Notes under the pieces: generated by a model
The model's input: only the letters and a program-made list of their open reading frames with translations
Told to the model about the DNA's origin: nothing
Databases searched by the model: none
Made by a program: the position numbers and the translations under genes
Assembly (NCBI RefSeq): GCF_030013205.1
Contig: NZ_CP122648.1
Reading direction: 5' to 3' (one strand)
Length of the DNA: 64,000 nt
From: Escherichia coli
GTDB taxonomy: Bacteria > Pseudomonadota > Gammaproteobacteria > Enterobacterales > Enterobacteriaceae
Shown: positions 9,888-52,923 of the stretch, one piece after another
How positions within the stretch are numbered: position 1 is the stretch's first letter
Layout: each line of letters begins with the position of its first letter

Positions 9888-10094
9888 ACTTTTCTCCCCC
9901 TTTTGTATCTACCCGGTGAATGGCACCGGAAAAATGAATTTGTTTATCTGATGAAAATAGTACCGCCTTTTGTGTAATTTTACTACTCATCCGACCACTT
10001 ATTTTTGCTTATTGATGGTTTATTTACATTCATACCGTAATTAAGTTACACAAAGGTTAAATTAATACTAAACATTAGTTAAATCATGGCTTTT

Positions 10095-10125
10095 GCCATT
10101 TTTATACTTTTTTTACACCCCGCCC
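10095..10125 (+). promoter_or_regulatory. kdpFABC promoter region with T-rich KdpE-binding sequence
   Basis: cattttTATACTTTTTTTACACCccgcccg about 75-100 bp upstream of kdpF; matches my recollection of the KdpE site in K-12. Approximate coordinates. Confidence 0.4.
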
Positions 10126-10199
10126 GCAGATTTTTGCGAAATCTTTGCAGCCAGAATTCTACCCTTCCGGTATCACTTTTAGGCCACTGGAGGTGCACT

Positions 10200-10289
10200 G
10201 TGAGTGCAGGCGTGATAGCCGGCGTGTTGCTGGTGTTTTTATTACTGGGTTATCTGGTTTATGCCCTGATCAATGCGGAGGCGTTCTGA
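10200..10289 (+). CDS. kdpF: KdpF, small membrane subunit of the Kdp K+-ATPase (29 aa)
   Basis: In frame within track ORF 10086..10289: (V/M)[31 protein letters not shown] start; stop overlaps the kdpA ATG. Confidence 0.75.
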
Positions 10290-11962
10290 TGGCTGCGCAA
10301 GGGTTCTTACTGATCGCCACGTTTTTACTGGTGTTAATGGTGCTGGCACGTCCTTTAGGCAGCGGGCTGGCGCGGCTGATTAATGACATACCTCTTCCCG
10401 GTACAGCGGGTGTTGAACGCGTACTCTTTCGTTTACCTGGCGTCTCTGACAGTGAGATGAACTGGAAGCAGTATCTCTGTGCCATTCTCGGCCTGAACAT
10501 GCTGGGGCTGGCGGTGCTGTTTTTTATGTTGCTCGGTCAGCACTATCTGCCGCTCAATCCACAGCAGTTGCCAGGGCTGTCATGGGATCTGGCGCTGAAT
10601 ACCGCCGTCAGCTTTGTCACTAATACCAACTGGCAATCTTACAGCGGTGAAACCACGTTGAGCTATTTCAGCCAGATGGCTGGCTTAACGGTGCAAAACT
10701 TTCTTTCTGCCGCCAGCGGGATTGCGGTGATTTTTGCCCTCATACGTGCATTTACCCGCCAGAGCATGAGCACACTCGGGAATGCCTGGGTCGATCTGCT
10801 ACGCATCACGTTATGGGTGCTAGTCCCTGTGGCGTTGTTGATCGCATTGTTTTTTATTCAACAAGGTGCGCTGCAAAACTTTCTGCCCTATCAGGCGGTG
10901 AATACCGTTGAAGGAGCGAAACAGCTGTTACCCATGGGTCCGGTGGCTTCTCAGGAAGCTATCAAGATGCTCGGCACTAACGGTGGTGGCTTCTTTAATG
11001 CCAACTCGTCGCATCCGTTTGAAAACCCAACCGCACTGACCAACTTCGTGCAGATGCTGGCGATCTTTTTGATCCCAACAGCGCTGTGCTTTGCCTTTGG
11101 TGAAGTGGCAGGCGATCGCCGCCAGGGGCGCATGTTGCTGTGGGCGATGTCAGTGATTTTTGTCATCTGCACAGGCGTGGTGATGTGGGCAGAAGTTCAG
11201 GGTAATCCTCATCTGCTGGCGCTGGGTGCGGACAGCAGCATCAATATGGAAGGTAAAGAGAGCCGTTTCGGCGTGCTGGTCAGTAGCCTGTTTGCGGTCG
11301 TGACTACGGCGGCTTCCTGTGGCGCGGTGATTGCGATGCATGATTCGTTTACCGCTCTCGGTGGCATGGTGCCGATGTGGCTGATGCAAATTGGTGAAGT
11401 GGTATTCGGCGGTGTCGGTTCTGGTCTTTACGGCATGATGCTGTTTGTCCTGCTGGCGGTGTTTATTGCCGGGCTGATGATTGGTCGTACACCGGAATAT
11501 CTGGGTAAAAAAATCGACGTACGTGAGATGAAATTGACTGCACTGGCGATTCTGGTTACTCCAACACTGGTGCTGATGGGCGCGGCGCTGGCGATGATGA
11601 CCGACGCCGGACGTAGCGCCATGCTCAACCCTGGCCCGCATGGTTTTAGCGAAGTGCTGTACGCCGTGTCATCCGCCGCTAACAACAACGGCAGCGCCTT
11701 TGCCGGATTAAGCGCCAACTCCCCGTTCTGGAACTGTTTACTGGCGTTCTGCATGTTTGTCGGTCGCTTCGGGGTGATTATCCCGGTGATGGCAATTGCC
11801 GGTTCGCTGGTGAGTAAAAAGAGCCAACCCGCCAGCTCCGGCACGCTGCCAACGCACGGCCCGCTGTTTGTTGGCCTGTTAATCGGCACCGTATTGCTGG
11901 TTGGCGCACTGACCTTTATCCCTGCCCTGGCGCTTGGTCCGGTGGCGGAATATCTCTCCTGA
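10289..11962 (+). CDS. kdpA: KdpA, K+-transporting ATPase K+-binding subunit (557 aa)
   Basis: Track ORF frame; conserved start [19 protein letters not shown]; polytopic membrane protein; operon context. Confidence 0.97.
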
Positions 11963-11984
11963 TGATATTGAGTGAGCACTGAAT

Positions 11985-14033
11985 ATGAGTCGTAAACAAC
12001 TGGCGCTATTCGAACCAACACTTGTCGTTCAGGCGCTGAAAGAAGCGGTGAAAAAATTAAACCCGCAGGCGCAATGGCGCAATCCGGTGATGTTTATCGT
12101 CTGGATCGGCAGTCTGCTGACCACCTTTATTAGCATCGCAATGGCAAGCGGTGCGATGCCTGGCAATGTGCTGTTTAGCGCGGCAATCAGCGGCTGGCTG
12201 TGGGTCACCGTACTGTTCGCTAATTTCGCCGAGGCGCTGGCAGAAGGCCGCAGTAAAGCGCAGGCCAACAGTCTGAAAGGGGTGAAAAAAACTGCCTTTG
12301 CCCGCAAGCTGCGTGAGCCGAAATATGGCGCTGCGGCGGACAAAGTTCCCGCCGATCAACTGCGTAAAGGCGATATCGTACTGGTGGAAGCTGGCGATAT
12401 TATCCCCTGCGATGGTGAAGTCATTGAAGGGGGCGCATCGGTCGATGAAAGCGCCATCACCGGGGAATCGGCACCGGTGATCCGTGAATCCGGCGGCGAT
12501 TTTGCCTCCGTCACTGGCGGCACGCGTATTCTTTCTGACTGGCTGGTGATTGAGTGCAGCGTTAACCCCGGCGAGACATTTCTGGATCGGATGATCGCGA
12601 TGGTGGAAGGCGCGCAGCGACGCAAAACGCCGAACGAGATTGCCCTGACCATCCTGCTGATTGCCCTGACTATCGTCTTTTTACTGGCAACCGCCACGCT
12701 GTGGCCGTTTTCCGCGTGGGGCGGTAATGCAGTCAGCGTAACGGTACTGGTGGCGCTGCTGGTCTGTCTGATCCCAACGACCATTGGCGGTCTGTTGTCA
12801 GCGATCGGCGTCGCCGGGATGAGTCGGATGCTGGGCGCGAATGTGATTGCCACCAGCGGACGTGCAGTTGAAGCGGCGGGTGACGTTGACGTCCTGCTGC
12901 TGGATAAAACCGGCACAATCACGCTAGGTAACCGTCAGGCATCGGAGTTTATCCCTGCACAGGGCGTAGAGGAAAAAACGCTGGCCGACGCCGCACAACT
13001 GGCTTCGCTGGCTGATGAAACGCCGGAAGGTCGCAGTATTGTGATCCTCGCCAAGCAACGTTTTAACCTGCGCGAGCGCGATGTGCAGTCGCTCCATGCC
13101 ACCTTTGTACCGTTTACTGCGCAAAGCCGGATGAGCGGGATCAACATCGACAACCGCATGATCCGTAAAGGTTCTGTCGATGCCATTCGCCGCCATGTTG
13201 AGGCTAACGGTGGTCACTTCCCTGCCGATGTCGATCAAAAAGTCGATCAGGTTGCGCGTCAGGGGGCCACGCCGCTGGTGGTGGTGGAAGGTTCCCGTGT
13301 GCTTGGCGTTATTGCGCTGAAAGATATCGTCAAAGGCGGTATTAAAGAGCGCTTCGCCCAGCTGCGCAAAATGGGCATTAAAACGGTGATGATTACCGGC
13401 GATAACCGTCTGACTGCCGCCGCGATTGCTGCGGAAGCGGGCGTCGATGATTTCCTCGCCGAAGCGACACCGGAGGCCAAGCTGGCATTGATTCGTCAGT
13501 ATCAGGCAGAAGGCCGTTTAGTGGCGATGACCGGCGATGGCACCAACGATGCTCCGGCGCTGGCGCAGGCAGATGTCGCGGTGGCGATGAACTCCGGTAC
13601 TCAGGCGGCGAAAGAAGCGGGCAATATGGTGGATCTCGACTCTAACCCGACCAAGTTGATCGAGGTGGTACATATTGGCAAACAGATGCTGATGACCCGT
13701 GGCTCGCTGACCACCTTCAGCATTGCCAACGATGTAGCGAAATACTTCGCCATTATTCCGGCGGCGTTCGCGGCAACGTATCCGCAGTTAAATGCGCTGA
13801 ACATCATGCGCCTTCATTCGCCCGACTCCGCCATTCTCAGTGCGGTCATTTTCAACGCCTTGATTATCGTCTTTTTGATTCCTCTGGCGTTAAAAGGCGT
13901 GAGTTATAAACCGCTTACCGCTTCTGCCATGTTGCGCCGTAACTTATGGATTTACGGTCTGGGTGGGCTGCTGGTGCCGTTTATTGGTATCAAAGTCATT
14001 GATTTACTGCTGACCGTTTGCGGTCTGGTGTGA
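11985..14033 (+). CDS. kdpB: KdpB, P-type ATPase catalytic subunit (682 aa)
   Basis: Track ORF; P-type ATPase motifs DKTGT(I)T and [12 protein letters not shown] present. Confidence 0.97.
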
Positions 14034-14041
14034 GGTTTACC

Positions 14042-14614
14042 ATGCGTGGATTACGTCCGGCATTATCAACATTTATCTTTCTGTTATTGATCACTGGCGG
14101 CGTTTACCCGCTGCTGACCACCGTGCTGGGGCAATGGTGGTTTCCCTGGCAGGCCAACGGTTCGTTGATTCGTGAAGGTGATACGGTGCGCGGTTCGGTA
14201 TTAATCGGGCAGAATTTTACCGGCAACGGCTATTTTCATGGTCGCCCGTCGGCAACGGCAGAAATGCCCTATAATCCACAGGCTTCTGGCGGGAGCAATC
14301 TGGCGGTCAGTAACCCTGAGCTGGATAAACTAATAGCCGCACGCGTTGCTGCATTACGGGCCGCTAACCCGGATGTCAGTGCGAACGTTCCGGTTGAACT
14401 GGTGACGGCATCGGCAAGCGGACTGGACAATAACATCACCCCGCAAGCGGCAGCCTGGCAGATCCCACGCGTGGCGAAAGCGCGTAATCTCAGCGTTGAA
14501 CAGCTCACGCAGCTGATCGCAAAATACAGCCAACAACCGCTGGTGAAATATATCGGCCAGCCGGTCGTCAACATTGTCGAACTCAATCTGGCGCTGGATA
14601 AACTTGATGAATAA
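14042..14614 (+). CDS. kdpC: KdpC, Kdp ATPase subunit C (190 aa)
   Basis: Track ORF frame trimmed to the conserved start [25 protein letters not shown]. Confidence 0.93.
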
Positions 14615-17291
14615 CGAACCCTTACGTCCCGACCCCGATCGTCTGCTGGAACAAACTGCCGCGCCGCATCGGGGGAAGCTGAAAGTTTTCTTCGGTGCCT
14701 GTGCGGGCGTCGGAAAGACCTGGGCGATGCTGGCAGAAGCCCAGCGACTGCGGGCGCAAGGGCTGGATATTGTGGTTGGCGTGGTTGAAACCCACGGGCG
14801 GAAAGATACCGCCGCAATACTGGAAGGGCTGGCTGTTCTGCCGCCCAAACGCCAGGCGTACCGTGGGCGGCATATCAGCGAATTTGATCTCGATGCCGCC
14901 CTCGCCCGCCGTCCGGCGCTGATCTTAATGGACGAACTGGCGCACAGTAATGCGCCAGGTTCTCGTCATCCTAAACGCTGGCAGGACATCGAAGAGCTGC
15001 TGGAAGCTGGCATTGATGTTTTCACAACCGTCAACGTTCAGCATCTGGAAAGTCTGAATGATGTGGTCAGCGGCGTCACCGGAATTCAGGTACGGGAAAC
15101 CGTGCCCGATCCTTTTTTCGATGCCGCCGACGACGTGGTGCTGGTGGACTTGCCCCCGGACGATCTGCGTCAACGGCTGAAAGAAGGTAAAGTCTATATT
15201 GCCGGGCAGGCGGAACGCGCCATTGAACATTTTTTTCGTAAAGGTAATCTGATCGCCCTGCGCGAACTGGCACTGCGCCGTACTGCCGATCGCGTTGATG
15301 AGCAAATGCGCGCCTGGCGGGGGCATCCTGGCGAAGAGAAAGTCTGGCACACGCGCGACGCGATCCTTTTATGCATCGGGCATAACACCGGCAGCGAAAA
15401 ACTGGTCCGCGCGGCGGCGCGGCTGGCGTCACGGCTGGGAAGCGTCTGGCACGCGGTGTATGTTGAAACCCCTGCCCTGCACCGCTTACCGGAGAAAAAA
15501 CGTCGGGCAATTCTCAGCGCCTTACGTCTGGCGCAGGAGCTGGGCGCAGAGACGGCAACACTTTCTGATCCAGCGGAAGAGAAAGCGGTAGTGCGTTATG
15601 CCCGTGAACATAATCTCGGCAAGATTATTCTCGGTCGCCCAGCCTCGCGCCGCTGGTGGCGTCGGGAAACGTTTGCTGACCGACTGGCGCGCATCGCCCC
15701 CGATCTCGATCAGGTGCTGGTCGCGCTTGATGAACCACCCGTCCGCACGATTAACAACGCGCCGGATAGCCGCTCTTTTAAAGACAAGTGGCGGGTACAG
15801 ATTCAGGGATGCGTGGTTGCCGCCGCGTTATGCGCCGTTATCACCTTAATTGCCATGCAGTGGCTGATGGCGTTTGATGCCGCCAACCTGGTGATGCTGT
15901 ATCTGCTTGGCGTGGTGGTGGTGGCGCTGTTTTATGGACGCTGGCCTTCGGTGGTTGCTACCGTCATTAATGTGGTGAGTTTCGATCTCTTTTTTATCGC
16001 CCCACGCGGCACGCTCGCCGTCTCTGATGTGCAATATCTGCTGACCTTCGCGGTGATGTTAACCGTCGGGCTGGTGATCGGGAACCTTACTGCGGGCGTG
16101 CGTTATCAGGCGCGGGTAGCCCGTTACCGCGAGCAACGCACACGGCACTTATATGAAATGTCGAAAGCACTGGCGGTGGGCCGCAGTCCGCAGGACATCG
16201 CCGCCACCAGCGAACAATTTATTGCCTCCACGTTTCATGCCCGCAGTCAGGTGCTGTTACCCGATGACAACGGTAAATTGCAGCCGTTAACACATCCGCA
16301 AGGAATGACGCCGTGGGACGATGCCATCGCGCAGTGGAGTTTTGATAAAGGCCTGCCTGCGGGCGCGGGCACCGACACGTTACCCGGTGTACCGTACCAG
16401 ATTTTGCCGCTAAAAAGCGGCGAGAAAACCTACGGGCTGGTGGTGGTGGAACCGGGGAATCTGCGCCAGTTGATGATCCCGGAACAGCAACGCCTGCTGG
16501 AGACGTTTACGCTGTTAGTCGCCAATGCCCTTGAGCGGCTGACACTGACCGCCAGCGAAGAACAGGCGCGGATGGCAAGCGAACGAGAACAGATCCGCAA
16601 CGCCCTGCTGGCGGCGCTTTCGCATGATTTACGCACGCCGCTTACGGTGCTGTTCGGTCAGGCAGAAATCTTAACGCTCGATCTGGCGAGCGAAGGATCG
16701 CCCCACGCCCGCCAGGCCAGCGAGATTCGTCAGCATGTGCTGAACACGACCCGACTGGTGAATAATCTACTGGATATGGCGCGAATTCAGTCCGGCGGCT
16801 TTAATTTGAAGAAAGAGTGGTTAACGCTGGAAGAAGTGGTCGGCAGCGCGCTGCAAATGCTGGAACCGGGTTTATCGTCGCCCATCAATCTTTCTCTGCC
16901 AGAACCGCTGACCTTAATCCACGTTGACGGGCCACTCTTTGAACGGGTGCTGATTAATCTGCTGGAGAACGCGGTGAAATACGCGGGTGCGCAGGCCGAA
17001 ATTGGTATCGATGCCCACGTTGAGGGCGAAAATCTACAACTGGATGTCTGGGATAATGGCCCCGGTCTTCCGCCAGGCCAGGAGCAGACGATATTTGATA
17101 AGTTTGCTCGCGGGAATAAAGAGTCGGCGGTACCGGGTGTAGGGCTTGGGCTGGCAATTTGTCGGGCGATTGTGGATGTACACGGCGGCACCATTACCGC
17201 GTTCAACCGACCGGAAGGTGGTGCCTGTTTTCGTGTTACACTTCCCCAGCAAACTGCCCCTGAACTTGAAGAATTTCATGAGGATATGTGA
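14607..17291 (+). CDS. kdpD: KdpD, sensor histidine kinase (894 aa)
   Basis: Track ORF frame trimmed to [16 protein letters not shown]; Walker-like GACAGVGKT in the N-terminal domain, transmembrane segment cluster, HisKA (LSHDLRTPL) and ATPase domains. Confidence 0.96.
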
Positions 17292-17965
17292 CAAACGTTC
17301 TGATTGTTGAAGATGAACAGGCTATTCGTCGCTTTCTGCGCACGGCGCTGGAGGGCGATGGGATGCGCGTCTTTGAGGCCGAAACGCTGCAACGCGGCTT
17401 GCTGGAAGCGGCTACCCGTAAGCCAGATTTGATTATTCTCGATCTCGGCCTGCCCGATGGTGATGGGATTGAGTTTATCCGCGACCTGCGCCAGTGGAGC
17501 GCAGTGCCGGTGATTGTGCTTTCCGCACGTAGCGAAGAGAGCGACAAAATCGCCGCGCTGGATGCCGGAGCGGATGATTATCTGAGTAAGCCGTTTGGCA
17601 TTGGCGAATTGCAGGCCCGTCTGCGCGTCGCATTACGCCGCCACTCTGCCACCACCACGCCCGATCCGCTGGTGAAATTTTCCAATGTTACCGTCGATTT
17701 AGCGGCTCGAGTGATCCATCGCGGTGAGGAAGAGGTGCATCTCACCCCGATTGAGTTCCGCCTGCTGGCGGTGTTGCTTAATAATGCGGGAAAAGTGCTC
17801 ACCCAGCGCCAGCTCCTTAACCAGGTGTGGGGGCCAAACGCGGTCGAACACAGTCATTATTTGCGTATTTATATGGGGCATCTGCGACAAAAACTGGAGC
17901 AAGATCCCGCCCGCCCCCGCCACTTCATTACTGAAACCGGTATTGGGTATCGGTTTATGCTTTAG
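17288..17965 (+). CDS. kdpE: KdpE, OmpR-family response regulator (225 aa)
   Basis: Track [20 protein letters not shown]...; 4-nt overlap with kdpD (atgtga). Confidence 0.97.
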   Translation: MTNVLIVEDEQAIRRFLRTALEGDGMRVFEAETLQRGLLEAATRKPDLIILDLGLPDGDGIEFIRDLRQWSAVPVIVLSARSEESDKIAALDAGADDYLSKPFGIGELQARLRVALRRHSATTTPDPLVKFSNVTVDLAARVIHRGEEEVHLTPIEFRLLAVLLNNAGKVLTQRQLLNQVWGPNAVEHSHYLRIYMGHLRQKLEQDPARPRHFITETGIGYRFML

Positions 17966-17974
17966 GCGGTTAAA

Positions 17975-18078
17975 TGCTGGATCCGGCATGAACGCCTTAT
18001 CCGGCCTACAAAATCTTGTAAATTCAATATATTGCACCATCCTCGCAGGCCTGATAAGCGTAGCGCATCAGGCAGTCA
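17975..18078. repeat. REP/BIME palindromic units in the kdpE-pgm intergenic region
   Basis: Two REP-like imperfect palindromes (ccggcatgaacgccttatccggcctac and gcctgataagcgtagcgcatcaggc). Confidence 0.6.
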
Positions 18079-18084
18079 TAAGTA

Positions 18085-18115
18085 AAAAAGGGCGATCTTC
18101 CGACCGCCCTTTTTC
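18085..18115. terminator. Bidirectional rho-independent terminator between convergent kdpE and pgm
   Basis: Hairpin gggcgatcttccgaccgccc flanked by A-run upstream and T-run downstream. Confidence 0.6.
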
Positions 18116-18128
18116 TTATTTAATGTGT

Positions 18129-19769
18129 TTACGCGTTTTTCAGAACTTCGCTAACAATCTCGACCGCTTCTTTCTCGATCTGCTTGCGATGCTCTTCACC
18201 GAGGAAGCTTTCGCAATAAATCTTGTACGCGTCTTCCGTGCCTGACGGACGCGCGGCGAACCAGCCGTTGTCAGTCATCACTTTCAGACCGCCGATAGAA
18301 GCACCGTTGCCAGGCGCAGCGGTCAGGCGCGCGGTGATCGGGTCACCTGCCAGGGTGCTGGCGCTCACCATTTCCGGAGACAGTTTAGACAGCGCCGCTT
18401 TTTGTGCGGAAGTCGCGGCTGCCTGCAAACGGTTGTAGCTCGGCGCACCAAAGCGTTTTGCCAGTTCGTTGTAGTGTTCCTGCGGGTTCTTACCGGTGAC
18501 CGCGGTGATTTCTGCCGCCAGCAGACACATAATGATACCGTCTTTATCGGTTGACCACGGCGTGCCGTCGAAACGCAGGAAGGAAGCCCCTGCGCTCTCT
18601 TCGCCGCCAAAGCCGAAGCTGCCGTCGAACAGACCATCAACAAACCATTTGAAACCTACCGGGACTTCTACCAGCTTACGGCCCAAGTCATTGACCACAC
18701 GGTCGATCATCGCAGATGAAACCAGCGTTTTACCGACAGCAACATCTTTGCCCCACTGCGGACGGTGCTGGAACAGGTAGTTGATCGCCACCGCCAGGTA
18801 GTGGTTCGGATTCATCAAACCTGCCGGAGTGACGATACCGTGACGGTCATAATCCGGGTCGTTAGCAAACGCCAGATCGAACTTATCACGCAGTGCCAGC
18901 AGACCCGCCATCGCACACTCGGAGGAGCAGTCCATACGGATCGCACCGTCTTTATCGAGGTGCATAAAGCGGAAGGTTTGATCGACCTGATCGTTAACGA
19001 TGGTCAGGTTGAGATTGTAATACTCGCCAATGCGCTTCCAGTATTCGATACCGGAACCACCCAGCGGATCAACGCCCAGCGTCAGGCCCGCTTTCTGAAT
19101 CGCCGCCATATCAACGATATCGGCCAGACCTTCCACAAACGGCTGCACCAGATCCTGCTCTTTCACATGACCGGATGCCATCGCTTCGTCGAGGGAGATA
19201 CGCTTCACGCCTTTCAGGCCATCAGCCATCAGTGCGTTGGCCCTGTCTTCCACCACTTTAGTGACGTTGGTATCAGCCGGGCCACCATTTGGCGGATTGT
19301 ACTTGATACCACCATCTTCCGGCGGGTTATGAGACGGTGTAATCACGATACCGTCTGCCAGCGGGCCACCTTTTTTATTGTGAACCAGGATGGCATTGGA
19401 AACGGCAGGCGTCGGGGTGAAGCCATTGTTTTCCTGCACAATGACATCAACGCCATTCGCTGCCAGCACTTCCAGTACGGAAATGAACGCAGGCTCGGAC
19501 AGGGCGTGAGTATCTTTACCCACATAGCAAGGGCCAGTGATGCCGTTTTTCGCACGTTCTTCAGCAATTGCCTGAGCGATCGCCAGAATGTGCGGCTCGT
19601 TAAAGCTGTGGCGCGCTGCACTGCCACGGTGACCGGAAGTACCGAATTTCACCGCGTGCTCCGCATTCCCTGCTTCTGGTTTCAGTACATAATATTGCGC
19701 CGTCAGTTGGGCGACGTTAATCAAATCACTCTGTTGTGCAGGTTGGCCTGCACGATTGTGGATTGCCAT
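18129..19769 (-). CDS. pgm: Phosphoglucomutase (546 aa)
   Basis: Track ORF frame trimmed to conserved start [16 protein letters not shown]; phosphohexomutase motifs ([20 protein letters not shown]). Confidence 0.96.
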
Positions 19770-22610: not shown

Positions 22611-22688
22611 ATTATCTCAAGAGCAAATTCTGTCACTTCTCCTAATGAAGTGAACCGCTTAGTAACAGGACAGATTCCGCATGACTGA
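22602..22688 (+). CDS. uof: Uof, upstream leader peptide of fur (28 aa)
   Basis: MIRIISRANSVTSPNEVNRLVTGQIPHD in frame at the end of track ORF 22452..22688; overlaps the fur start. Confidence 0.8.
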   Translation: MIRIISRANSVTSPNEVNRLVTGQIPHD

Positions 22689-25349: not shown

Positions 25350-26052
25350 TAAATATCCTCCGGCATAGCCGGAGGTTTTTCAAATGCGCCTATAAGGCTC
25401 TCTTACCAGCCGCGCCCTAACAGGCGCACACGATCTGACATTTGCATCCAACTTCGTTACTTACGGCCCGTAAACGGGCTGCCCGGATAGGGAATCGATA
25501 ACTGCTCTCCCATTTTATCCTCTTCAAGCTGGTGCTTTATGTAATCCTGTATCTTCGCCGTGTTCTTACCCACCGTATCGACGTAGTACCCTCTGCACCA
25601 GAACTCTCTGTTCCTGTATTTGAATTTCAAATCACCAAACTGCTCGTAAAGCATCAGACTGCTTTTCCCTTTCAGATATCCCATAAAGCCGGATACGCTC
25701 ATTTTGGGCGGGATCTCCACAAGCATATGGATATGATCTGCACAGCATTCAGCTTCAAGAATCCGTACGCTTTTCCACTCACACAGCTTTCTCAAAATAC
25801 TGCCTATTGCTCTACGCTTCTCTCTGTAGAACACTTGTCTTCGGTATTTTGGCGCAAAAACTATGTGATATTTACAGTTCCATCGGGTGTGCGCTAAGCT
25901 CTTTTCGTTCCCCATTGGGACCCCCTTTTGATTTCTTGTTTGACACTTGCAGTTGCCAGACCGCAAGGTGTTTTAACAAATCAAAAGGGGTTTTAATAAC
26001 TGGCTCAAAGCTGAAAGCTTTCCGGAACCCCCAGCCTAGCTGGGGGTTTTCT
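25350..26052 (-). mobile_element. IS200 (IS200/IS605 family, about 0.7 kb) inserted between chiP and glnS; boundaries approximate
   Basis: Contains an IS200-type tnpA plus hairpins near both ends (26026..26048 aacccccagcctagctgggggtt; 25357..25375 cctccggcatagccggagg); no IS of this kind at this position in K-12 as I recall. Confidence 0.7.
25457..25915 (-). CDS. tnpA: IS200 transposase TnpA (Y1/HUH family, 152 aa)
   Basis: Track ORF frame trimmed to MGNEKSLAHTRWNCKYHIVFAPKYRRQVFY...; matches IS200 TnpA as I remember it, including the HIH motif (ADHIHML) and catalytic Tyr region. Confidence 0.9.
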   Translation of the reverse strand: MGNEKSLAHTRWNCKYHIVFAPKYRRQVFYREKRRAIGSILRKLCEWKSVRILEAECCADHIHMLVEIPPKMSVSGFMGYLKGKSSLMLYEQFGDLKFKYRNREFWCRGYYVDTVGKNTAKIQDYIKHQLEEDKMGEQLSIPYPGSPFTGRK

Positions 26053-36636: not shown

Positions 36637-36713
36637 GGCTACGTAGCTCAGTTGGTTAGAGCACATCACTCATAATGATGGGGTCACAGGTTCGAATCCC
36701 GTCGTAGCCACCA
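36637..36713 (+). tRNA. metT: tRNA-Met (elongator, anticodon CAU)
   Basis: 77-nt sequence GGCTACGTAGCTCAGTTGGTTAGAGCACATCACTCATAATGATGGGGTCACAGGTTCGAATCCCGTCGTAGCCACCA; cloverleaf with CCA end. Confidence 0.93.
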
Positions 36714-36721
36714 TCTTTTTT

Positions 36722-36806
36722 GCGGGAGTGGCGAAATTGGTAGACGCACCAGATTTAGGTTCTGGCGCCGCAAGGTGTGCGAGTTCAAGTCTCGCCTCCC
36801 GCACCA
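36722..36806 (+). tRNA. leuW: tRNA-Leu (anticodon UAG)
   Basis: 85-nt GCGGGAGTGGCGAAATTGGTAGACGCACCAGATTTAGGTTCTGGCGCCGCAAGGTGTGCGAGTTCAAGTCTCGCCTCCCGCACCA with long variable arm. Confidence 0.93.
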
Positions 36807-36829
36807 TTCACCAGAAAGCGTTGTACGGA

Positions 36830-36904
36830 TGGGGTATCGCCAAGCGGTAAGGCACCGGTTTTTGATACCGGCATTCCCTGGTTCGAATCCAGGTACCCCA
36901 GCCA
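36830..36904 (+). tRNA. glnU: tRNA-Gln (anticodon UUG)
   Basis: 75-nt TGGGGTATCGCCAAGCGGTAAGGCACCGGTTTTTGATACCGGCATTCCCTGGTTCGAATCCAGGTACCCCAGCCA. Confidence 0.93.
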
Positions 36905-36938
36905 TATTCTTCGAGTAAGCGGTTCACCGCCCGGTTAT

Positions 36939-37013
36939 TGGGGTATCGCCAAGCGGTAAGGCACCGGTTTTTGATACCGGCATTCCCTGGTTCGAATCCA
37001 GGTACCCCAGCCA
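36939..37013 (+). tRNA. glnW: tRNA-Gln (anticodon UUG), second copy
   Basis: Identical 75-nt sequence to the preceding tRNA-Gln(UUG). Confidence 0.93.
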
Positions 37014-37028
37014 TCGAAGAAACAATCT

Positions 37029-37105
37029 GGCTACGTAGCTCAGTTGGTTAGAGCACATCACTCATAATGATGGGGTCACAGGTTCGAATCCCGTCGTAGC
37101 CACCA
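37029..37105 (+). tRNA. metU: tRNA-Met (elongator, anticodon CAU), second copy
   Basis: Identical 77-nt sequence to metT. Confidence 0.93.
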
Positions 37106-37153
37106 AATTCTGAATGTGTCGAATATGTTCGGCAAATTCAAAAACCAATTTGT

Positions 37154-37228
37154 TGGGGTATCGCCAAGCGGTAAGGCACCGGATTCTGATTCCGGCATTC
37201 CGAGGTTCGAATCCTCGTACCCCAGCCA
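37154..37228 (+). tRNA. glnV: tRNA-Gln (anticodon CUG)
   Basis: 75-nt TGGGGTATCGCCAAGCGGTAAGGCACCGGATTCTGATTCCGGCATTCCGAGGTTCGAATCCTCGTACCCCAGCCA; only one CUG copy present. Confidence 0.9.
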
Positions 37229-40279: not shown

Positions 40280-41320
40280 TTGAACATAGACACTCGCGAA
40301 ATCACCCTGGAGCCAGCAGACAACGCGCGTCTGTTGAGCCTGTGCGGCCCGTTTGATGACAACATCAAGCAGCTCGAACGCCGTCTCGGCATCGAGATCA
40401 ATCGCCGCGATAACCACTTTAAACTGACCGGCCGTCCGATTTGCGTCACCGCTGCGGCAGACATTCTGCGTAGCCTGTATGTCGATACTGCCCCGATGCG
40501 TGGTCAGATTCAGGATATCGAACCGGAACAGATCCACCTTGCGATTAAAGAAGCGCGGGTACTGGAGCAAAGCGCGGAGAGCGTGCCGGAGTACGGCAAA
40601 GCGGTCAATATCAAGACCAAACGCGGCGTAATTAAGCCGCGCACGCCAAACCAGGCGCAGTACATTGCCAATATTCTCGACCATGACATCACCTTCGGCG
40701 TTGGCCCGGCGGGTACGGGTAAAACCTACCTGGCAGTGGCTGCGGCAGTTGATGCCCTGGAGCGTCAGGAAATTCGCCGTATTCTCCTGACTCGTCCGGC
40801 GGTAGAAGCCGGTGAGAAACTGGGCTTCCTGCCTGGCGATTTAAGCCAGAAAGTAGATCCGTATCTGCGCCCGCTGTACGACGCGCTGTTTGAAATGCTG
40901 GGCTTTGAGAAAGTCGAGAAACTGATTGAGCGCAACGTTATTGAAGTCGCACCGCTGGCCTATATGCGTGGCCGTACGCTGAACGACGCGTTTATCATTC
41001 TCGATGAAAGCCAGAACACCACCATCGAACAGATGAAGATGTTCCTGACCCGTATCGGTTTTAACTCAAAAGCGGTTATCACCGGCGACGTCACACAGAT
41101 CGACCTGCCGCGTAATACTAAATCAGGCTTACGTCATGCCATCGAAGTGCTGGCCGATGTCGAAGAGATCAGCTTTAACTTCTTCCACAGCGAAGACGTG
41201 GTTCGTCACCCGGTGGTGGCGCGTATCGTTAACGCTTATGAAGCCTGGGAAGAAGCAGAACAAAAACGTAAAGCGGCGCTGGCAACAGAACGCAAGCGCG
41301 AAGAACAGGAACAAAAATGA
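40280..41320 (+). CDS. ybeZ: YbeZ, PhoH-like ATPase (346 aa; TTG start inferred)
   Basis: Track ORF frame; conserved N-terminus (M)[20 protein letters not shown]; Walker A GPAGTGKT. Confidence 0.9.
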
Positions 41321-42776: not shown

Positions 42777-44315
42777 ATGGCTTTTGCCTCATTAATTGAA
42801 CGCCAGCGCATTCGCCTGCTGCTGGCGTTATTATTCGGTGCCTGCGGAACGCTGGCCTTCTCTCCTTACGACGTCTGGCCTGCGGCGATTATTTCGCTGA
42901 TGGGGCTTCAGGCGCTGACCTTTAACCGCCGTCCACTCCAGTCTGCCGCTATTGGCTTTTGCTGGGGATTTGGCCTCTTTGGCAGCGGTATTAACTGGGT
43001 CTATGTCAGCATCGCGACTTTTGGTGGAATGCCTGGCCCGGTTAACATCTTCCTGGTGGTGCTGCTGGCGGCGTATTTGTCGCTGTATACCGGACTGTTT
43101 GCTGGCGTGCTGTCGCGTCTGTGGCCGAAAACCACCTGGCTGCGCGTGGCGATTGCCGCCCCTGCTCTCTGGCAAGTGACCGAGTTTCTGCGCGGTTGGG
43201 TGCTGACCGGCTTCCCGTGGTTACAGTTCGGCTATAGCCAGATTGATGGCCCGTTAAAAGGGCTGGCACCGATAATGGGCGTGGAAGCCATTAACTTCCT
43301 GCTGATGATGGTTAGTGGCCTGCTGGCACTGGCGTTGGTCAAACGCAACTGGCGTCCGCTGGTAGTGGCCGTCGTGCTGTTTGCCCTTCCCTTCCCGCTG
43401 CGTTACATCCAGTGGTTTACCCCGCAACCGGAGAAAACCATTCAGGTTTCGATGGTTCAGGGCGATATTCCGCAATCACTGAAATGGGACGAAGGCCAGC
43501 TTCTTAATACGCTGAAGATTTACTACAACGCAACGGCACCGCTGATGGGCAAATCATCGTTGATTATCTGGCCGGAGTCGGCGATAACCGATCTGGAAAT
43601 TAATCAGCAACCGTTCCTCAAAGCACTGGACGGTGAGTTGCGCGATAAAGGGAGCTCGCTGGTAACCGGGATTGTTGACGCGCGTCTCAATAAGCAGAAC
43701 CGCTACGATACTTACAACACCATCATCACGCTGGGGAAAGGTGCGCCGTACAGCTACGAATCAGCCGATCGCTATAACAAAAACCATCTGGTGCCGTTTG
43801 GCGAGTTTGTCCCGCTGGAGTCGATTCTGCGTCCGTTAGCGCCGTTCTTTGATCTGCCGATGTCGTCGTTCAGCCGTGGGCCATATATCCAGCCACCGCT
43901 GTCGGTAAACGGTATTGAGCTTACTGCGGCTATTTGCTACGAGATCATTCTCGGCGAGCAAGTGCGTGATAACTTCCGCCCGGATACCGACTATCTGCTG
44001 ACTATCTCCAACGATGCGTGGTTTGGTAAGTCTATTGGTCCATGGCAGCACTTCCAGATGGCGCGAATGCGTGCGTTGGAGCTGGCGCGCCCATTGCTGC
44101 GTAGCACCAACAACGGTATTACGGCGGTGATTGGCCCGCAGGGTGAGATTCAGGCGATGATCCCGCAATTCACCCGCGAGGTGTTAACCACTAACGTGAC
44201 GCCGACTACCGGACTTACACCGTACGCACGTACCGGCAACTGGCCTCTGTGGGTGCTGACGGCACTGTTTGGTTTTGCTGCTGTGCTGATGAGCCTGCGT
44301 CAACGACGTAAATAA
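42777..44315 (+). CDS. lnt: Lnt, apolipoprotein N-acyltransferase (512 aa)
   Basis: Track ORF; N-terminal polytopic membrane region and C-terminal nitrilase-like domain. Confidence 0.96.
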
Positions 44316-44711
44316 TCCCTTCTTATCGTGCCGGAATACATCCCGTATTTCGGCACGCTCACCGGATGCGGCATCAGTGCGTTATCCGGATAACAAAATC
44401 CCCCTATCCAACTTTGGCACATCTATTGCTTTGTTATACAAGGCAAAGCTTGAACCAGCATCAGTACAACCCGGTTGCACCACAGCAATCCACGGGTAGC
44501 ACCAAAAGAGTGCATTTTAAGAATTTTGCTTCGGAATGGTGCGGCGCAACTCGCAAAAACAAACAATAAAACAGCAATATCTTTACATTTAGCCAAACTA
44601 AATGTTACCTAACAGGCACAACACTGCACAATAAAGTTGCAGACGATAACAACACAAACACTCACAACGGGTATCCATGCGTTCTTAACGCAGAAGATAA
44701 AGGAGTTGGAT

Positions 44712-45620
44712 ATGCAATTACGTAAACCTGCCACAGCAATCCTGGCCCTGGCGCTTTCCGCAGGACTGGCACAGGCAGATGACGCCGCCCCGGCAGCAGG
44801 CAGTACGCTGGACAAAATCGCCAAAAACGGTGTGATTGTCGTCGGTCACCGTGAATCTTCAGTACCTTTCTCTTATTACGACAATCAGCAAAAAGTGGTG
44901 GGTTACTCGCAGGATTACTCCAACGCCATTGTTGAAGCAGTGAAAAAGAAACTCAACAAACCGGACTTGCAGGTGAAACTGATTCCGATCACCTCACAAA
45001 ACCGTATTCCTCTGCTGCAAAACGGCACTTTCGATTTTGAATGTGGTTCCACCACCAATAACGTCGAACGCCAGAAACAGGCGGCTTTCTCTGACACTAT
45101 TTTCGTGGTCGGCACGCGCCTGTTGACCAAAAAGGGGGGCGATATCAAAGATTTTGCCGACCTGAAAGGCAAAGCCGTAGTCGTCACTTCCGGCACTACT
45201 TCTGAAGTTTTGCTCAACAAACTGAATGAAGAGCAAAAAATGAATATGCGCATCATCAGCGCCAAAGATCACGGTGACTCTTTCCGCACCCTGGAAAGCG
45301 GTCGTGCCGTTGCCTTTATGATGGATGATGCTCTGCTGGCTGGTGAACGTGCGAAAGCGAAGAAACCAGACAACTGGGAAATCGTCGGCAAGCCGCAGTC
45401 TCAGGAAGCCTACGGTTGTATGTTGCGTAAAGACGATCCGCAGTTCAAAAAGCTGATGGATGACACCATCGCGCAGGTGCAGACCTCCGGTGAAGCGGAA
45501 AAATGGTTTGATAAATGGTTCAAAAATCCAATTCCGCCGAAAAACCTGAACATGAATTTCGAACTGTCAGACGAAATGAAAGCACTGTTCAAAGAACCGA
45601 ATGACAAGGCACTGAACTAA
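44712..45620 (+). CDS. gltI: GltI, glutamate/aspartate periplasmic binding protein (302 aa)
   Basis: Track ORF frame trimmed to MQLRKPATAILALALSAGLAQA signal peptide. Confidence 0.95.
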   Translation: MQLRKPATAILALALSAGLAQADDAAPAAGSTLDKIAKNGVIVVGHRESSVPFSYYDNQQKVVGYSQDYSNAIVEAVKKKLNKPDLQVKLIPITSQNRIPLLQNGTFDFECGSTTNNVERQKQAAFSDTIFVVGTRLLTKKGGDIKDFADLKGKAVVVTSGTTSEVLLNKLNEEQKMNMRIISAKDHGDSFRTLESGRAVAFMMDDALLAGERAKAKKPDNWEIVGKPQSQEAYGCMLRKDDPQFKKLMDDTIAQVQTSGEAEKWFDKWFKNPIPPKNLNMNFELSDEMKALFKEPNDKALN

Positions 45621-45789: not shown

Positions 45790-46530
45790 ATGTCTATAGA
45801 CTGGAACTGGGGTATTTTTTTACAACAAGCCCCGTTCGGCAACACCACCTATCTTGGTTGGATCTGGAGTGGTTTTCAGGTGACGATCGCTTTGTCGATC
45901 TGCGCCTGGATTATCGCTTTCCTCGTCGGTTCATTTTTCGGCATTTTACGTACCGTTCCAAACCGTTTTCTCTCCGGTCTGGGTACGTTGTATGTCGAAC
46001 TGTTCCGCAACGTGCCGTTGATTGTGCAATTCTTTACCTGGTATCTGGTGATCCCGGAGCTGTTGCCGGAGAAAATCGGCATGTGGTTTAAGGCCGAGCT
46101 GGATCCCAATATTCAGTTTTTCCTTTCATCCATGCTTTGCCTGGGGCTGTTTACCGCCGCCCGTGTTTGCGAACAGGTACGCGCCGCGATTCAGTCGTTG
46201 CCGCGTGGGCAAAAGAATGCCGCGCTGGCAATGGGGCTGACGCTACCGCAGGCTTATCGCTACGTACTGCTGCCTAATGCTTATCGCGTTATCGTCCCGC
46301 CGATGACTTCCGAGATGATGAACCTGGTGAAAAACTCCGCCATCGCCTCGACTATCGGTCTGGTGGATATGGCAGCGCAGGCCGGTAAATTGCTTGATTA
46401 CTCAGCCCACGCCTGGGAGTCGTTTACCGCCATTACGCTTGCGTATGTGTTGATTAACGCTTTTATCATGCTGGTGATGACGCTGGTTGAACGTAAAGTT
46501 CGCCTGCCTGGCAACATGGGGGGCAAATAA
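45790..46530 (+). CDS. gltJ: GltJ, glutamate/aspartate ABC permease (246 aa)
   Basis: Track ORF; polar amino-acid permease; operon context. Confidence 0.95.
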
Positions 46531-47204
46531 TGTACGAGTTTGACTGGAGTTCCATTGTCCCTTCCCTGCCATATCTGCTCGACGGGCTGGTGATCACGCT
46601 GAAAATCACCGTCACAGCAGTCGTGATTGGTATTTTGTGGGGCACCATGCTGGCGGTGATGCGCTTATCCAGCTTCGCGCCTGTTGCGTGGTTTGCCAAA
46701 GCCTACGTTAACGTGTTCCGCTCGATTCCTTTAGTTATGGTTTTGCTGTGGTTTTACCTGATTGTGCCGGGTTTTCTGCAAAACGTGCTGGGATTATCGC
46801 CAAAAAATGATATCCGTTTAATTTCGGCAATGGTGGCGTTTTCGATGTTTGAAGCGGCCTACTATTCAGAGATTATCCGTGCCGGTATTCAAAGTATTTC
46901 CCGTGGTCAGTCTAGCGCCGCGCTGGCGTTGGGGATGACTCACTGGCAGTCGATGAAACTGATTATTCTGCCGCAGGCTTTCCGCGCGATGGTGCCGCTG
47001 CTGCTCACTCAGGGCATCGTACTGTTCCAGGATACCTCACTGGTGTATGTGTTATCTCTGGCCGATTTCTTCCGTACCGCTTCAACCATTGGTGAGCGTG
47101 ATGGTACGCAGGTCGAGATGATCCTGTTTGCCGGATTTGTTTATTTCGTTATTAGCCTTAGCGCGTCGTTGTTGGTCAGCTACTTGAAAAGAAGGACAGC
47201 TTAA
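46530..47204 (+). CDS. gltK: GltK, glutamate/aspartate ABC permease (224 aa)
   Basis: Track ORF; start overlaps gltJ stop. Confidence 0.95.
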
Positions 47205-47929
47205 TGATTACCCTGAAAAATGTTTCAAAATGGTATGGTCACTTTCAGGTGCTGACCGACTGCTCAACCGAAGTGAAAAAAGGCGAAGTGGTGGTGGTTT
47301 GCGGCCCGTCTGGTTCCGGCAAATCAACGCTGATTAAAACCGTCAACGGCCTCGAACCGGTGCAGCAAGGTGAAATTACCGTCGATGGCATCGTGGTTAA
47401 CGATAAGAAAACCGATCTGGCAAAGCTGCGTTCCCGCGTCGGGATGGTGTTCCAGCATTTCGAGTTGTTCCCCCATTTGTCGATTATTGAAAACCTGACC
47501 CTGGCGCAGGTGAAAGTGCTTAAACGCGATAAAGCACCCGCTCGTGAAAAAGCATTGAAATTGCTGGAGCGCGTGGGACTTTCCGCACATGCCAATAAAT
47601 TTCCGGCGCAGCTTTCCGGCGGTCAGCAACAGCGTGTGGCGATCGCTCGCGCATTGTGTATGGATCCTATTGCCATGCTGTTCGACGAACCGACATCGGC
47701 GCTGGATCCGGAGATGATCAACGAAGTGCTGGACGTAATGGTCGAACTGGCGAACGAAGGAATGACCATGATGGTGGTGACCCACGAAATGGGCTTTGCC
47801 CGTAAAGTGGCGAATCGGGTGATCTTTATGGACGAGGGTAAAATTGTCGAAGACTCGCCGAAAGACGCTTTCTTCGATGATCCGAAATCGGACCGCGCAA
47901 AAGACTTCCTCGCGAAAATCCTGCATTAA
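47204..47929 (+). CDS. gltL: GltL, glutamate/aspartate ABC ATP-binding protein (241 aa)
   Basis: Track ORF; Walker [10 protein letters not shown], signature LSGGQQQR. Confidence 0.96.
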
Positions 47930-48046: not shown

Positions 48047-48982
48047 ATGGCACTGCCAATTCTGTTAGATTGCGACCCAGGTCATGACGACGCTATCGCA
48101 ATAGTTCTCGCCCTCGCCTCACCAGAGCTTGATGTCAAAGCAATTACGTCTTCCGCCGGAAACCAGACACCAGAAAAAACCTTACGCAATGTTCTGCGTA
48201 TGCTGACCTTGCTTAATCGCACCGATATTCCGGTAGCAGGCGGCGCGGTAAAACCGTTAATGCGTGAGTTGATTATCGCGGACAATGTGCACGGCGAAAG
48301 CGGTCTCGACGGCCCGGCATTACCGGAACCGACGTTCGCACCGCAAAACTGTACGGCGGTAGAGCTGATGGCGAAAACACTACGTGAAAGTGCGGAACCT
48401 GTCACGATTGTTTCTACCGGACCGCAAACTAACGTTGCCTTGCTGCTCAATAGCCACCCGGAACTGCATAGCAAAATTGCCCGTATCGTGATTATGGGCG
48501 GTGCAATGGGGCTTGGTAACTGGACGCCTGCGGCTGAATTTAATATTTACGTTGACCCGGAAGCGGCAGAAATTGTCTTCCAGTCAGGGATCCCGGTGGT
48601 GATGGCCGGTCTGGATGTTACTCACAAAGCACAAATTCACGTTGAGGACACCGAGCGTTTCCGCGCCATTGGCAACCCTGTTTCAACCATTGTTGCCGAA
48701 CTGCTGGATTTCTTCCTCGAATATCATAAAGACGAAAAATGGGGCTTTGTCGGCGCACCGCTGCATGACCCATGCACCATCGCCTGGCTGTTAAAACCGG
48801 AGTTGTTTACCACTGTTGAGCGCTGGGTTGGCGTGGAAACACAAGGGAAATATACCCAGGGTATGACGGTTGTTGATTATTATTATCTGACCGGCAATAA
48901 ACCGAATGCTACTGTAATGGTCGATGTTGATCGTCAGGGCTTTGTTGATTTACTGGCTGATCGTCTGAAATTTTACGCTTAA
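48047..48982 (+). CDS. rihA: RihA, pyrimidine-specific ribonucleoside hydrolase (311 aa)
   Basis: Track ORF frame trimmed to [22 protein letters not shown] (nucleoside hydrolase DxDxxxDD motif). Confidence 0.95.
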
Positions 48983-49026
48983 TCACTCGCCGGATGACAT
49001 CACGCCATCCGGCACCACTCATTTCA

Positions 49027-49509
49027 TTAAGGCTCGAACGGGCGTCTCTGGAACTGGTCATGACCACATTTCGGGCATAGCGTCAGCACTTCCGGTGTAT
49101 AGATCGGGAGATGGAAGTGACATTTCTCGCAGACCAGATTTCCCAGCCCTACCACTTCTCCGCTGTGATAAACCCCGTGATGATTGAGGTCCTGGAAAAC
49201 TTCGCGCCATTCAAGCTGCGTTTTATCGGTGATGTCTGCCAGCTCCTGCCACAAGCTTTCTTTAATCACCCGCATAAAGACGCTGTCAGACTCTTCTTTC
49301 AGGCTCTCTTCATAGCTCATGGCGAACTCTTCCAGGTCACGTCTGACAGCTCGCGTCAGCTCATCGACTTCGGTTCGCGTTAACTCCCCTGTTTTTATTA
49401 CGCGCTCGCGCGCCTGTTCCACCAGTGCGTCGATATCACGTTCGCCATTGCGCAGGCGTTCGCTCAGTGACGCGACCAGTTCACGGTAATATTGAGCAAC
49501 CTTGTTCAT
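49027..49509 (-). CDS. ybeL: YbeL (DUF1451 zinc-ribbon protein, 160 aa)
   Basis: Track ORF; C-terminal CxxC...CxxC (CEKCHF...CPKCGH); convergent with rihA. Confidence 0.9.
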   Translation of the reverse strand: MNKVAQYYRELVASLSERLRNGERDIDALVEQARERVIKTGELTRTEVDELTRAVRRDLEEFAMSYEESLKEESDSVFMRVIKESLWQELADITDKTQLEWREVFQDLNHHGVYHSGEVVGLGNLVCEKCHFHLPIYTPEVLTLCPKCGHDQFQRRPFEP

Positions 49510-52341: not shown

Positions 52342-52923
52342 GTGCGATATCTGGCAACATTGTTGTTATCTCTGGCGGTGTTAATCACCGCCGGGTGTGG
52401 CTGGCATCTGCGTGATACCACGCAGGTTCCTTCCACTATGAAGGTCATGATCCTGGACTCAGGCGATCCGAACGGGCCATTAAGCCGTGCGGTGCGTAAC
52501 CAGTTACGTCTGAATGGTGTCGAGTTGCTTGATAAAGAAACCACGCGTAAGGACGTTCCATCCCTGCGTTTGGGTAAAGTGAGCATCGCGAAAGATACCG
52601 CATCGGTATTCCGTAACGGTCAAACAGCAGAGTATCAGATGATCATGACGGTCAATGCGACCGTGTTGATCCCCGGCCGTGACATCTACCCGATTAGCGC
52701 CAAAGTCTTCCGTTCGTTCTTCGATAACCCGCAAATGGCGTTAGCGAAAGATAACGAACAAGACATGATCGTAAAAGAGATGTACGACCGTGCTGCCGAA
52801 CAGCTGATTCGTAAGCTGCCAAGCATCCGTGCTGCGGATATTCGTTCCGACGAAGAACAGACGTCGACCACAACGGATACTCCGGCAACGCCTGCACGCG
52901 TCTCTACCACGCTGGGTAACTGA
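52342..52923 (+). CDS. lptE: LptE (RlpB), LPS-assembly lipoprotein (193 aa)
   Basis: Track [24 protein letters not shown] (lipobox ITAGC). Confidence 0.95.

Follow-up and report, generated by a model that had tools for sequence, protein, structure and literature searches.

Overlapping stop and start codons in the kdpFABCDE operon of an Escherichia coli strain: gene starts and possible translational coupling

Experiments performed with reporters have shown that reinitiation falls steeply with the distance between a stop codon and the next start, 80-100% of it being lost at +38 nt (PMC10666635), and the abstract of that study states that a distance of about 20 nt almost abolishes it. Reinitiation requires an overlap or a very short gap, and three overlaps, -4, -1 and -8, are enriched (PMC10666635; PMC12548453). 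The E. coli pairs hyfH-hyfI, ydbH-ynbE and menD-menH have a native -1 overlap together with a Shine-Dalgarno sequence (SD) inside the upstream gene, like kdpF/kdpA; their coupling was measured with reporters (PMC10666635), whereas coupling in kdp is read from geometry. Histidine kinase and response regulator genes often share a 4-nt ATGA/GTGA overlap, a general pattern that kdpD/kdpE fits with nothing to distinguish it. The 8-nt overlap of kdpC and kdpD belongs to the same class, NTG-N2-TAA/TGA, as that of uof-fur in E. coli. Translation of fur is said to depend on translation of uof, a result attributed to Vecerek et al. in 2007. However, uof is a regulatory leader of 28 codons that is translated under the control of RyhB, whereas kdpC encodes a structural subunit and the dependence of kdpD on it is hypothetical. 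A literature search found no paper testing translational coupling for kdp, and a 2025 review of coupling does not mention kdp (PMC12548453).

The window analysed here, 64,000 nt of E. coli contig NZ_CP122648.1 (assembly GCF_030013205.1), carries the standard E. coli kdpFABCDE operon, which encodes the K+-pumping P-type ATPase KdpFABC and the two-component regulator KdpD/KdpE. Direct reading and translation give six clean, co-directional open reading frames (ORFs) in the order F-A-B-C-D-E, whose products are homologous over their full length to the characterised E. coli proteins (Table 1); in the PDB, chains of KdpF, KdpC and KdpE agree with these products from one end to the other, and for KdpD there are matching domain structures. 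The junction distances are -1 (F/A), +22 (A/B), +8 (B/C), -8 (C/D) and -4 (D/E), and K-12 MG1655 (b4513, b0698-b0694) has the same gene order, the same gene lengths and the same five distances. The curated MG1655 record has the same boundaries and starts, and the same boundaries are found in the PGAP/RefSeq annotation of a strain that is 100% identical over 10000-18000. The window and strain EC556 are not collinear, with indels outside the kdp region, and coordinates were mapped by anchoring. The kdp DNA matches 5423 of 5426 complete E. coli genomes at 95-100% identity. Its differences from K-12 kdp are point substitutions only, such as Thr7Ala in KdpF; residue 2 of KdpC is Arg in the window and Ser in K-12. 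The speFL-speF-potE block, which lies 3' of kdpE in K-12, is missing there in this strain.

The overlaps in kdp are real, but they are the ordinary and already annotated layout of this operon. Direct reading returned the very coordinates that the initial annotation had given, and bears out the 1-nt, 8-nt and 4-nt overlaps that it described; the overlaps that it had listed at ybeZ-ybeY, gltJ-gltK, gltK-gltL and lptE-holA are present too. A further overlap, uof/fur, was missing from its list.

Table 1. Positions of the kdp genes, their regulatory sequences and the overlapping junctions of the window
Feature	Position	Strand	Description
KdpE half-sites, kdpFABC promoter	10101-10117	+	TTTATA-N5-TTTACA, single exact match
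SD for kdpF	10189-10193	+	GGAGG, 6 nt before GTG 10200
kdpF	10200-10289	+	29-aa membrane peptide, GTG start
SD for kdpA	10277-10281	+	GGAGG, within kdpF codons Ala26-Glu27-Ala28, 7 nt before ATG 10289
kdpF stop/kdpA start overlap	10287-10291	+	TGATG, -1 (1 nt)
kdpA	10289-11962	+	557 aa, ATG start
kdpB	11985-14033	+	682 aa; 22 nt past kdpA stop, without overlap
kdpC	14042-14614	+	190 aa; 8 nt past kdpB stop
kdpC stop/kdpD start overlap	14607-14614	+	ATGAATAA, -8 (8 nt)
kdpD	14607-17291	+	894-aa sensor kinase
SD for kdpE	17280-17284	+	GAGGA, inside kdpD coding region, -6.1 kcal/mol
kdpD stop/kdpE start overlap	17288-17291	+	GTGA, -4 (4 nt)
kdpE	17288-17965	+	225-aa response regulator, GTG start
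uof/fur overlap	22681-22688	+	8 nt (-8), geometry as in kdpC/kdpD
ybeZ/ybeY overlap	41317-41320	+	ATGA, -4
gltJ/gltK overlap	46528-46532	+	TAATG, -1
gltK/gltL overlap	47202-47206	+	TAATG, -1
lptE/holA overlap	52921-52925	+	TGATG, -1

The sequences of the KdpE half-sites and a footprint at -72 to -50 from the transcription start have been published (PMC3264566). A KdpE recognition site lies 5' of kdpF; it is the sole match to TTTATA-N5-TTTACA in the window, where 0.01 would be expected by chance, and together with the published footprint it would place the start of the kdpF transcript near 10169. The whole of kdpFABCDE would be read from this one KdpE-activated promoter just 5' of kdpF. The literature points to co-transcription of kdpDE with kdpFABC: KdpE ChIP-exo gave no peak upstream of kdpDE, and kdpDE expression was altered in a kdpE knockout under K+ limitation (PMC7657598). 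Upon induction, according to a statement in PMC4985592 that cites Surmann 2014, KdpD and KdpE both rise at least 10-fold and the kinase:regulator ratio stays constant. A promoter and terminator consensus scan of 9850-18200 returned nothing above shuffled expectation, and it also missed the activator-dependent kdp promoter; a search of the entire window with Rfam gave no known RNA element within kdp.

Gene starts were compared at aligned positions in orthologue DNA from 13 Enterobacterales. For kdpF, kdpA, kdpB and kdpC a start codon is found at the aligned position in 13/13 (within one codon for kdpA in Mangrovibacter), and the starts of kdpD and kdpE are at the aligned position or a few codons off. 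No upstream in-frame start exists for kdpB, kdpE, ybeY, gltK, gltL or holA, and the GTG of kdpE is the only start codon in its ORF ahead of the receiver domain. KdpF is present as a chain of 29 aa in 14 PDB entries of KdpFABC and as one of 27 aa in a further 11, the 190-aa chain of KdpC is used in PDB entries, and KdpE chains span residues 1-225. It could be argued that one or more kdp genes begin further upstream, at ATG 10086 (kdpF), TTG 10145 or GTG 10193 (kdpA), TTG 14018 or GTG 14030 (kdpC), or TTG 14574 or 14604 (kdpD), and that the overlaps are annotation artefacts. These in-frame candidates are present in E. coli and most of them also in E. albertii, but in the other genera the extensions run into in-frame stops or lack a start codon. 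Upstream of kdpF, 9/13 orthologues have no start; an in-frame stop lies at most 5 codons upstream of the kdpA ATG in 9/13; the TTG at -8 of kdpC and the TTG codons at -11 and -1 of kdpD are found only in E. albertii. GTG 14030, which would overlap the kdpB stop as GTGA, was rejected as the kdpC start, given that it occurs (as GTG at -4) in only 3/13 orthologues and ATG 14042 in all 13. Moreover, with a transcript start at about 10169, ATG 10086, TTG 10134 and TTG 10145 would all lie upstream of the message, and the functional structures carry the short forms. The longer starts are refuted by the in-frame stops or missing start codons that interrupt them in orthologues, and artefactual overlaps are extremely improbable. 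Judging from these alignments, the short starts of the annotation are correct; the initial annotation had chosen them over longer ORFs and had named orthologue alignment as the check, and its choice was right.

The argument that the overlapping pattern itself confirms these starts does not hold. Among the 4816 stop triplets in the window, an NTG is present at -4 for 34%, at -1 for 8.9% and at -8 for 5.2%, and a review points out that the -4 spacing evolves easily because the start codon gives three of the four bases (PMC12548453). An overlap alone cannot confirm a start, since a third of stops have such an NTG by chance and kdpB/kdpC harbours an unused GTGA decoy. Same-strand pairs spaced -8 to +6 nt account for 11/39 in the window and, in published E. 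coli data, for 707/2987, about a quarter (PMC10666635), a difference that is not significant (binomial p = 0.31). The window thus matches the genome average. The earlier remark that such overlaps are expected for operons and of low interest was correct.

Spacing that is capable of reinitiation (-8, -4, -1 or at most a few nt) is found at F/A, C/D and D/E; A/B is too far apart and B/C is borderline. Coupling had been described as running through the kdp operon, but only three of its five junctions overlap; A/B (+22) and B/C (+8) do not. Coupling through the whole operon is therefore unsupported, given that two junctions are gapped and that reinitiation falls steeply with distance. At the three overlaps, a terminating ribosome could reinitiate on the next gene, and kdpB and kdpC are most likely initiated independently, at sites within the short spacers. 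The SD of kdpB is weak (-4.7 kcal/mol) and that of kdpC (GAGG) overlaps the kdpB stop. A mini-ORF of 6 codons, MILSEH (11962-11982), begins on the stop codon of kdpA and leaves 2 nt between its own end and the start of kdpB. It was rejected as a relay across the 22-nt gap and is probably due to chance, in view of its patchy distribution: it is present in Escherichia, different ones occur in Citrobacter, Y. aldovae and Rahnella, and 8 other genera have none.

The predicted strength of the SDs differs along the operon, with the strongest anti-SD duplex at kdpF (-10.6 kcal/mol) and the weakest at kdpD (-3.1 kcal/mol), which has almost no SD. Since kdpA and kdpE each have an adequate SD inside the upstream gene (-9.5 and -6.1 kcal/mol), they could initiate independently; coupling would probably add to this direct initiation and probably helps to hold the KdpF:KdpA and KdpD:KdpE ratios fixed. 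Translation of kdpD is probably low and mostly dependent on ribosomes finishing kdpC. Overlapping starts did not differ meaningfully from the remaining starts of the window in SD strength (means -5.7 vs -6.0 kcal/mol) or in local RNA accessibility (0.41 vs 0.47 unpaired), so that a coupling model based on RNA unfolding receives no structural support.

The same overlaps might be neutral by-products of genome compaction, with a ribosome-binding site for each gene and no role in coupling. Such an origin would agree with the 34% of stop triplets that have an NTG at -4 by chance, with the ease with which this spacing evolves (PMC12548453), with the lack of enrichment of overlaps in the window over the genome average and with the good SDs of kdpA and kdpE. 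The C/D geometry also drifts among genera: the 8-nt overlap is found only in Escherichia (including K-12 and E. albertii) among the loci compared, and in the other Enterobacterales genera the spacing of the two genes is either +2 to +18 nt or -4. Its restriction to Escherichia indicates that no strong long-term selection acts on the C/D overlap. The near absence of an SD at kdpD is nevertheless hard to reconcile with a self-sufficient site there, and the other two junctions are better kept. The F/A junction is -1, 0 or +1 in 13/13 Enterobacterales. In a wider comparison of 80 kdp loci from diverse bacteria, with subsets of 68 (F/A) and 60 (D/E) scored, a KdpF-like ORF ends beside the kdpA start in 62/68 (61 within -4 to +2 nt, one at +6), against 2.8% at random positions, and the loci with a tight junction come from Proteobacteria, Acidobacteria and Firmicutes. 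The D/E overlap is -4 in 10/12 Enterobacterales (the Photorhabdus junction having been corrected by eye), and an overlap is found in 31/60 loci of the wider set. Furthermore, six of six native overlapping pairs placed in reporters, three of them from E. coli, showed strongly distance-dependent coupling (PMC10666635). Taken together, purely neutral overlaps seem unlikely, and we consider it quite probable that this is a standard operon with a single KdpE-activated promoter, in which the short starts are true and the geometry at F/A, C/D and D/E allows reinitiation. From this geometry, actual coupling at the kdp overlaps and a quantitative role for it are plausible.

Two further readings are possible. 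The conserved C-terminus of KdpF, Ala-Glu-(Ala/Asp/Glu)-Phe, may be under constraint in part through its codons, GCG-GAG-G, which are also the ribosome-binding site of kdpA. The codon of Glu27 is GAG in 13/13 Enterobacterales, whereas in kdpAB of these loci only 12-38% of Glu codons are GAG, and this invariant minority codon speaks for selection on the embedded SD. Escherichia kdpD, in turn, may be translated mainly by ribosomes that terminate at the kdpC stop, 8 nt downstream. Polarek et al. reportedly described in 1992 a weak promoter for kdpDE within kdpC that gives basal expression; kdpC would be untranslated on a transcript from such a promoter, which counts against kdpC-kdpD coupling. 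We consider these two readings less likely than not.

For this window, the value of the analysis is one of quality control only: its gene starts are sound and the operon is the textbook one. An overlapping stop and start is no evidence for a start by itself, and orthologue alignment settles such questions quickly. Dual coding in kdpF, if true, would help to account for the lasting attachment of so short a gene (29 aa) to the kdpA start in different phyla. Coupling of kdpD to kdpC, if true, would mean that induction of kdpFABC raises KdpD/KdpE translationally as well as transcriptionally, a second layer of positive feedback; were it demonstrated, the well-studied feedback loop of Kdp would gain a small layer at the level of translation.

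Window positions 10200-17965 hold the E. coli kdpFABCDE operon, and the 8-kb query 10000-18000 is matched by 5423 of 5426 complete E. coli genomes, with 100% identity in several porcine strains, including O139:H1. Translation at the coordinates of the initial annotation gave six clean ORFs, from kdpF to kdpE of 29, 557, 682, 190, 894 and 225 aa. Every start and stop position is identical in the PGAP annotation of EC556, a strain 100% identical to the window over this region, and in the curated entry for K-12 MG1655; KdpF, KdpC and KdpE have the same lengths in PDB structures of the functional complex and of the regulator. The kdp overlaps reported initially were exact on direct reading and translation. 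Positions outside kdp were remapped from EC556, since indels make the window non-collinear with that strain there; the reported ybeZ/ybeY, gltJ/gltK, gltK/gltL and lptE/holA overlaps then proved exact and identical in K-12. The uof/fur overlap was absent from the initial list. The kdp observation holds, is ordinary and was known before: it agrees throughout with the reference operon, whose curated K-12 annotation includes the overlaps.

Gene junctions, and sites of absences relative to K-12 (negative distance, overlap in nt; positive, gap)
Feature	Distance	Sequence or type	Position
kdpF/kdpA	-1	TGATG	10287-10291
kdpA/kdpB	+22	no overlap	
kdpB/kdpC	+8	no overlap	
kdpC/kdpD	-8	ATGAATAA	14607-14614
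kdpD/kdpE	-4	GTGA	17288-17291
uof/fur	8-nt overlap	ATGACTGA; spacing class as kdpC/kdpD	22681-22688
ybeZ/ybeY		ATGA overlap	41317-41320
gltJ/gltK		overlap	46530
gltK/gltL		overlap	47204
lptE/holA		overlap	52923
ybeQ-hscC block		absent	48982-49027
IS5D		absent	44315-44712

The initial annotation spoke of tight translational coupling through the kdp operon, which overstates how far coupling reaches: the overlaps stand at F/A, C/D and D/E, but A/B and B/C are separated by gaps. Reporters on native E. coli pairs show that reinitiation drops steeply with distance (PMC10666635); coupling would therefore be expected at the three overlapping junctions, with kdpB and kdpC initiating independently. Our literature search found no published measurement of translational coupling in kdp. 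In published work kdpDE appears to be transcribed together with kdpFABC (PMC7657598), and induction raises KdpD and KdpE by 10-fold or more without changing their ratio (PMC4985592). Both results are consistent with one transcript and a fixed translational ratio.

Recurrence of the overlaps was expected for operons, and this was borne out. An NTG placed for a 4-nt overlap accompanies 34% of the 4816 stop triplets that the window contains in any frame on both strands; for overlaps of 1 nt and 8 nt the shares are 8.9% and 5.2%. Spacings of -8 to +6 nt occur in 11 of 39 same-strand neighbour pairs, against a published E. coli value of 707/2987, or 24% (PMC10666635; binomial p 0.31), and prokaryotes are known to be enriched in three spacings, -4, -1 and -8 (PMC12548453). 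The bare pattern is not beyond chance, and for these reasons the recurrence reflects normal E. coli operon architecture.

The start choices themselves were upheld by orthologue alignment, the check that had been named for them. A KdpB query collected 80 kdp loci from different species, in which the six genes were placed by tblastn and start candidates inspected; 13 were Enterobacterales (Escherichia albertii, Citrobacter, Enterobacter, Superficieibacter, Klebsiella, Mangrovibacter, Yersinia, Rahnella, Photorhabdus, Budvicia and Providencia). In these 13, kdpF, kdpA, kdpB and kdpC have a start codon at the aligned position (kdpA within one codon in Mangrovibacter), and kdpD and kdpE there or a few codons away. 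Longer kdpF starts (ATG 10086, TTG 10134) were rejected, as any upstream start is missing from 9 of 13 orthologues, and E. albertii and C. werkmanii alone retain ATG -38. For kdpA (TTG 10145, GTG 10193), an in-frame stop lies at most 5 codons upstream of the ATG in 9 of 13. Only E. albertii shares TTG -8 of kdpC (14018) and both kdpD candidates (TTG 14574, TTG 14604). No upstream in-frame start exists for kdpB, kdpE, fur, ybeY, gltK, gltL or holA, and the chosen codons are thus the earliest available. That the overlaps confirm the starts, as had been asserted, did not hold: the kdpB stop and an in-frame GTG at 14030 overlap perfectly as GTGA (14030-14033), but kdpC does not start there; this GTG (-4) recurs in only 3 of 13 orthologues, against 13 of 13 for ATG 14042. 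Overlap and start are compatible, but the one does not confirm the other.

The KdpE half-sites TTTATA-N5-TTTACA occur once in the window, at 10101-10117. With the published footprint lying at -72 to -50 relative to the transcription start (PMC3264566), transcription would begin near 10169, which would place 10086, 10134 and 10145 off the mRNA and lend the short starts independent support. Directly upstream of half-site S1 lies a perfect palindrome, ATGGCTTTTGCCAT (10086-10099), terminator-like by scan, which holds the ATG of a spurious 67-aa ORF.

In 62 of 68 loci of the wider set, a hydrophobic KdpF-like ORF of 24-40 codons ends beside the start of kdpA, at -4 to +2 nt in 61 and +6 in one (random positions, 2.8%); the tightness of this junction is ancient. 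The kdpA/kdpB and kdpB/kdpC junctions are nearly always short gaps. Of 12 Enterobacterales, 10 have a kdpD/kdpE distance of -4 (the Photorhabdus start corrected by eye to GTGA), and the two genes overlap in 31 of 60 loci overall; kdpC/kdpD is -8 in Escherichia only, and -4 or +2 to +18 in other genera. In Yersinia aldovae, 209 nt are inserted between the two regulator genes kdpD and kdpE (locus L010, 15461-15669), which in its sister species Y. artesiana overlap by ATGA as usual. These genes seem to overlap by 29 nt in Providencia vermicola (L014, 15363-15391), and two Nitrosomonas genomes have an apparent order kdpA-kdpC-kdpB instead of A-B-C (L016, 7673-12085; L018, 8166-12079; all in locus coordinates). 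In the window, a six-codon mini-ORF (MILSEH, 11962-11982) shares its first base with the final base of the kdpA stop (TGATG), and 2 nt separate its end from the kdpB ATG. Citrobacter, Y. aldovae and Rahnella have other mini-ORFs across this gap, 8 further genera none; MILSEH is probably due to chance.

The surroundings differ from K-12. Here pgm follows kdpE directly after 163 nt (17966-18128), whereas K-12 has ~5.9 kb with speFL-speF-potE-ybfI-ybfG-ybfP; 353 of 5426 complete E. coli genomes share the direct junction. Part of the spacer (~17975-18080) has a median of 15 matches per genome and is thus a dispersed REP-like repeat. The window lacks the block ybeQ-ybeR-djlB-ybeT-ybeU-djlC-hscC that K-12 has between ybeL and rihA, as well as the IS5D that K-12 carries between gltI and lnt. 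Between chiP and glnS it has an inserted IS200C transposase gene with its STnc490 RNA element (25457-26048), which K-12 lacks at this site; a second IS200C, beside ybfA in EC556, is absent from the window. The tRNA cluster (36637-37225) has six tRNAs against seven in K-12 and EC556, and is 112-113 nt shorter than in EC556, consistent with one tRNA-Gln copy fewer.

Shine-Dalgarno (SD) pairing energies were -10.6 (kdpF), -9.5 (kdpA), -4.7 (kdpB), -6.3 (kdpC), -3.1 (kdpD) and -6.1 kcal/mol (kdpE). The kdpA SD, GGAGG (10277-10281), lies inside kdpF codons 26-28, and in all 13 Enterobacterales the codon at its core, Glu27 (10278-10280), reads GAG against a GAA-biased background. GAG is the minority Glu codon there (12-38% in kdpAB of the same loci, 28% in the window), and synonymous sites beside it vary, which argues for selection on the embedded SD. 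Only two points are mildly new: this invariant GAG, and the Escherichia-specific -8 overlap beside a nearly SD-less kdpD start. The Glu27 codon would be a minor example of two constraints acting together on a gene for a 29-aa peptide.
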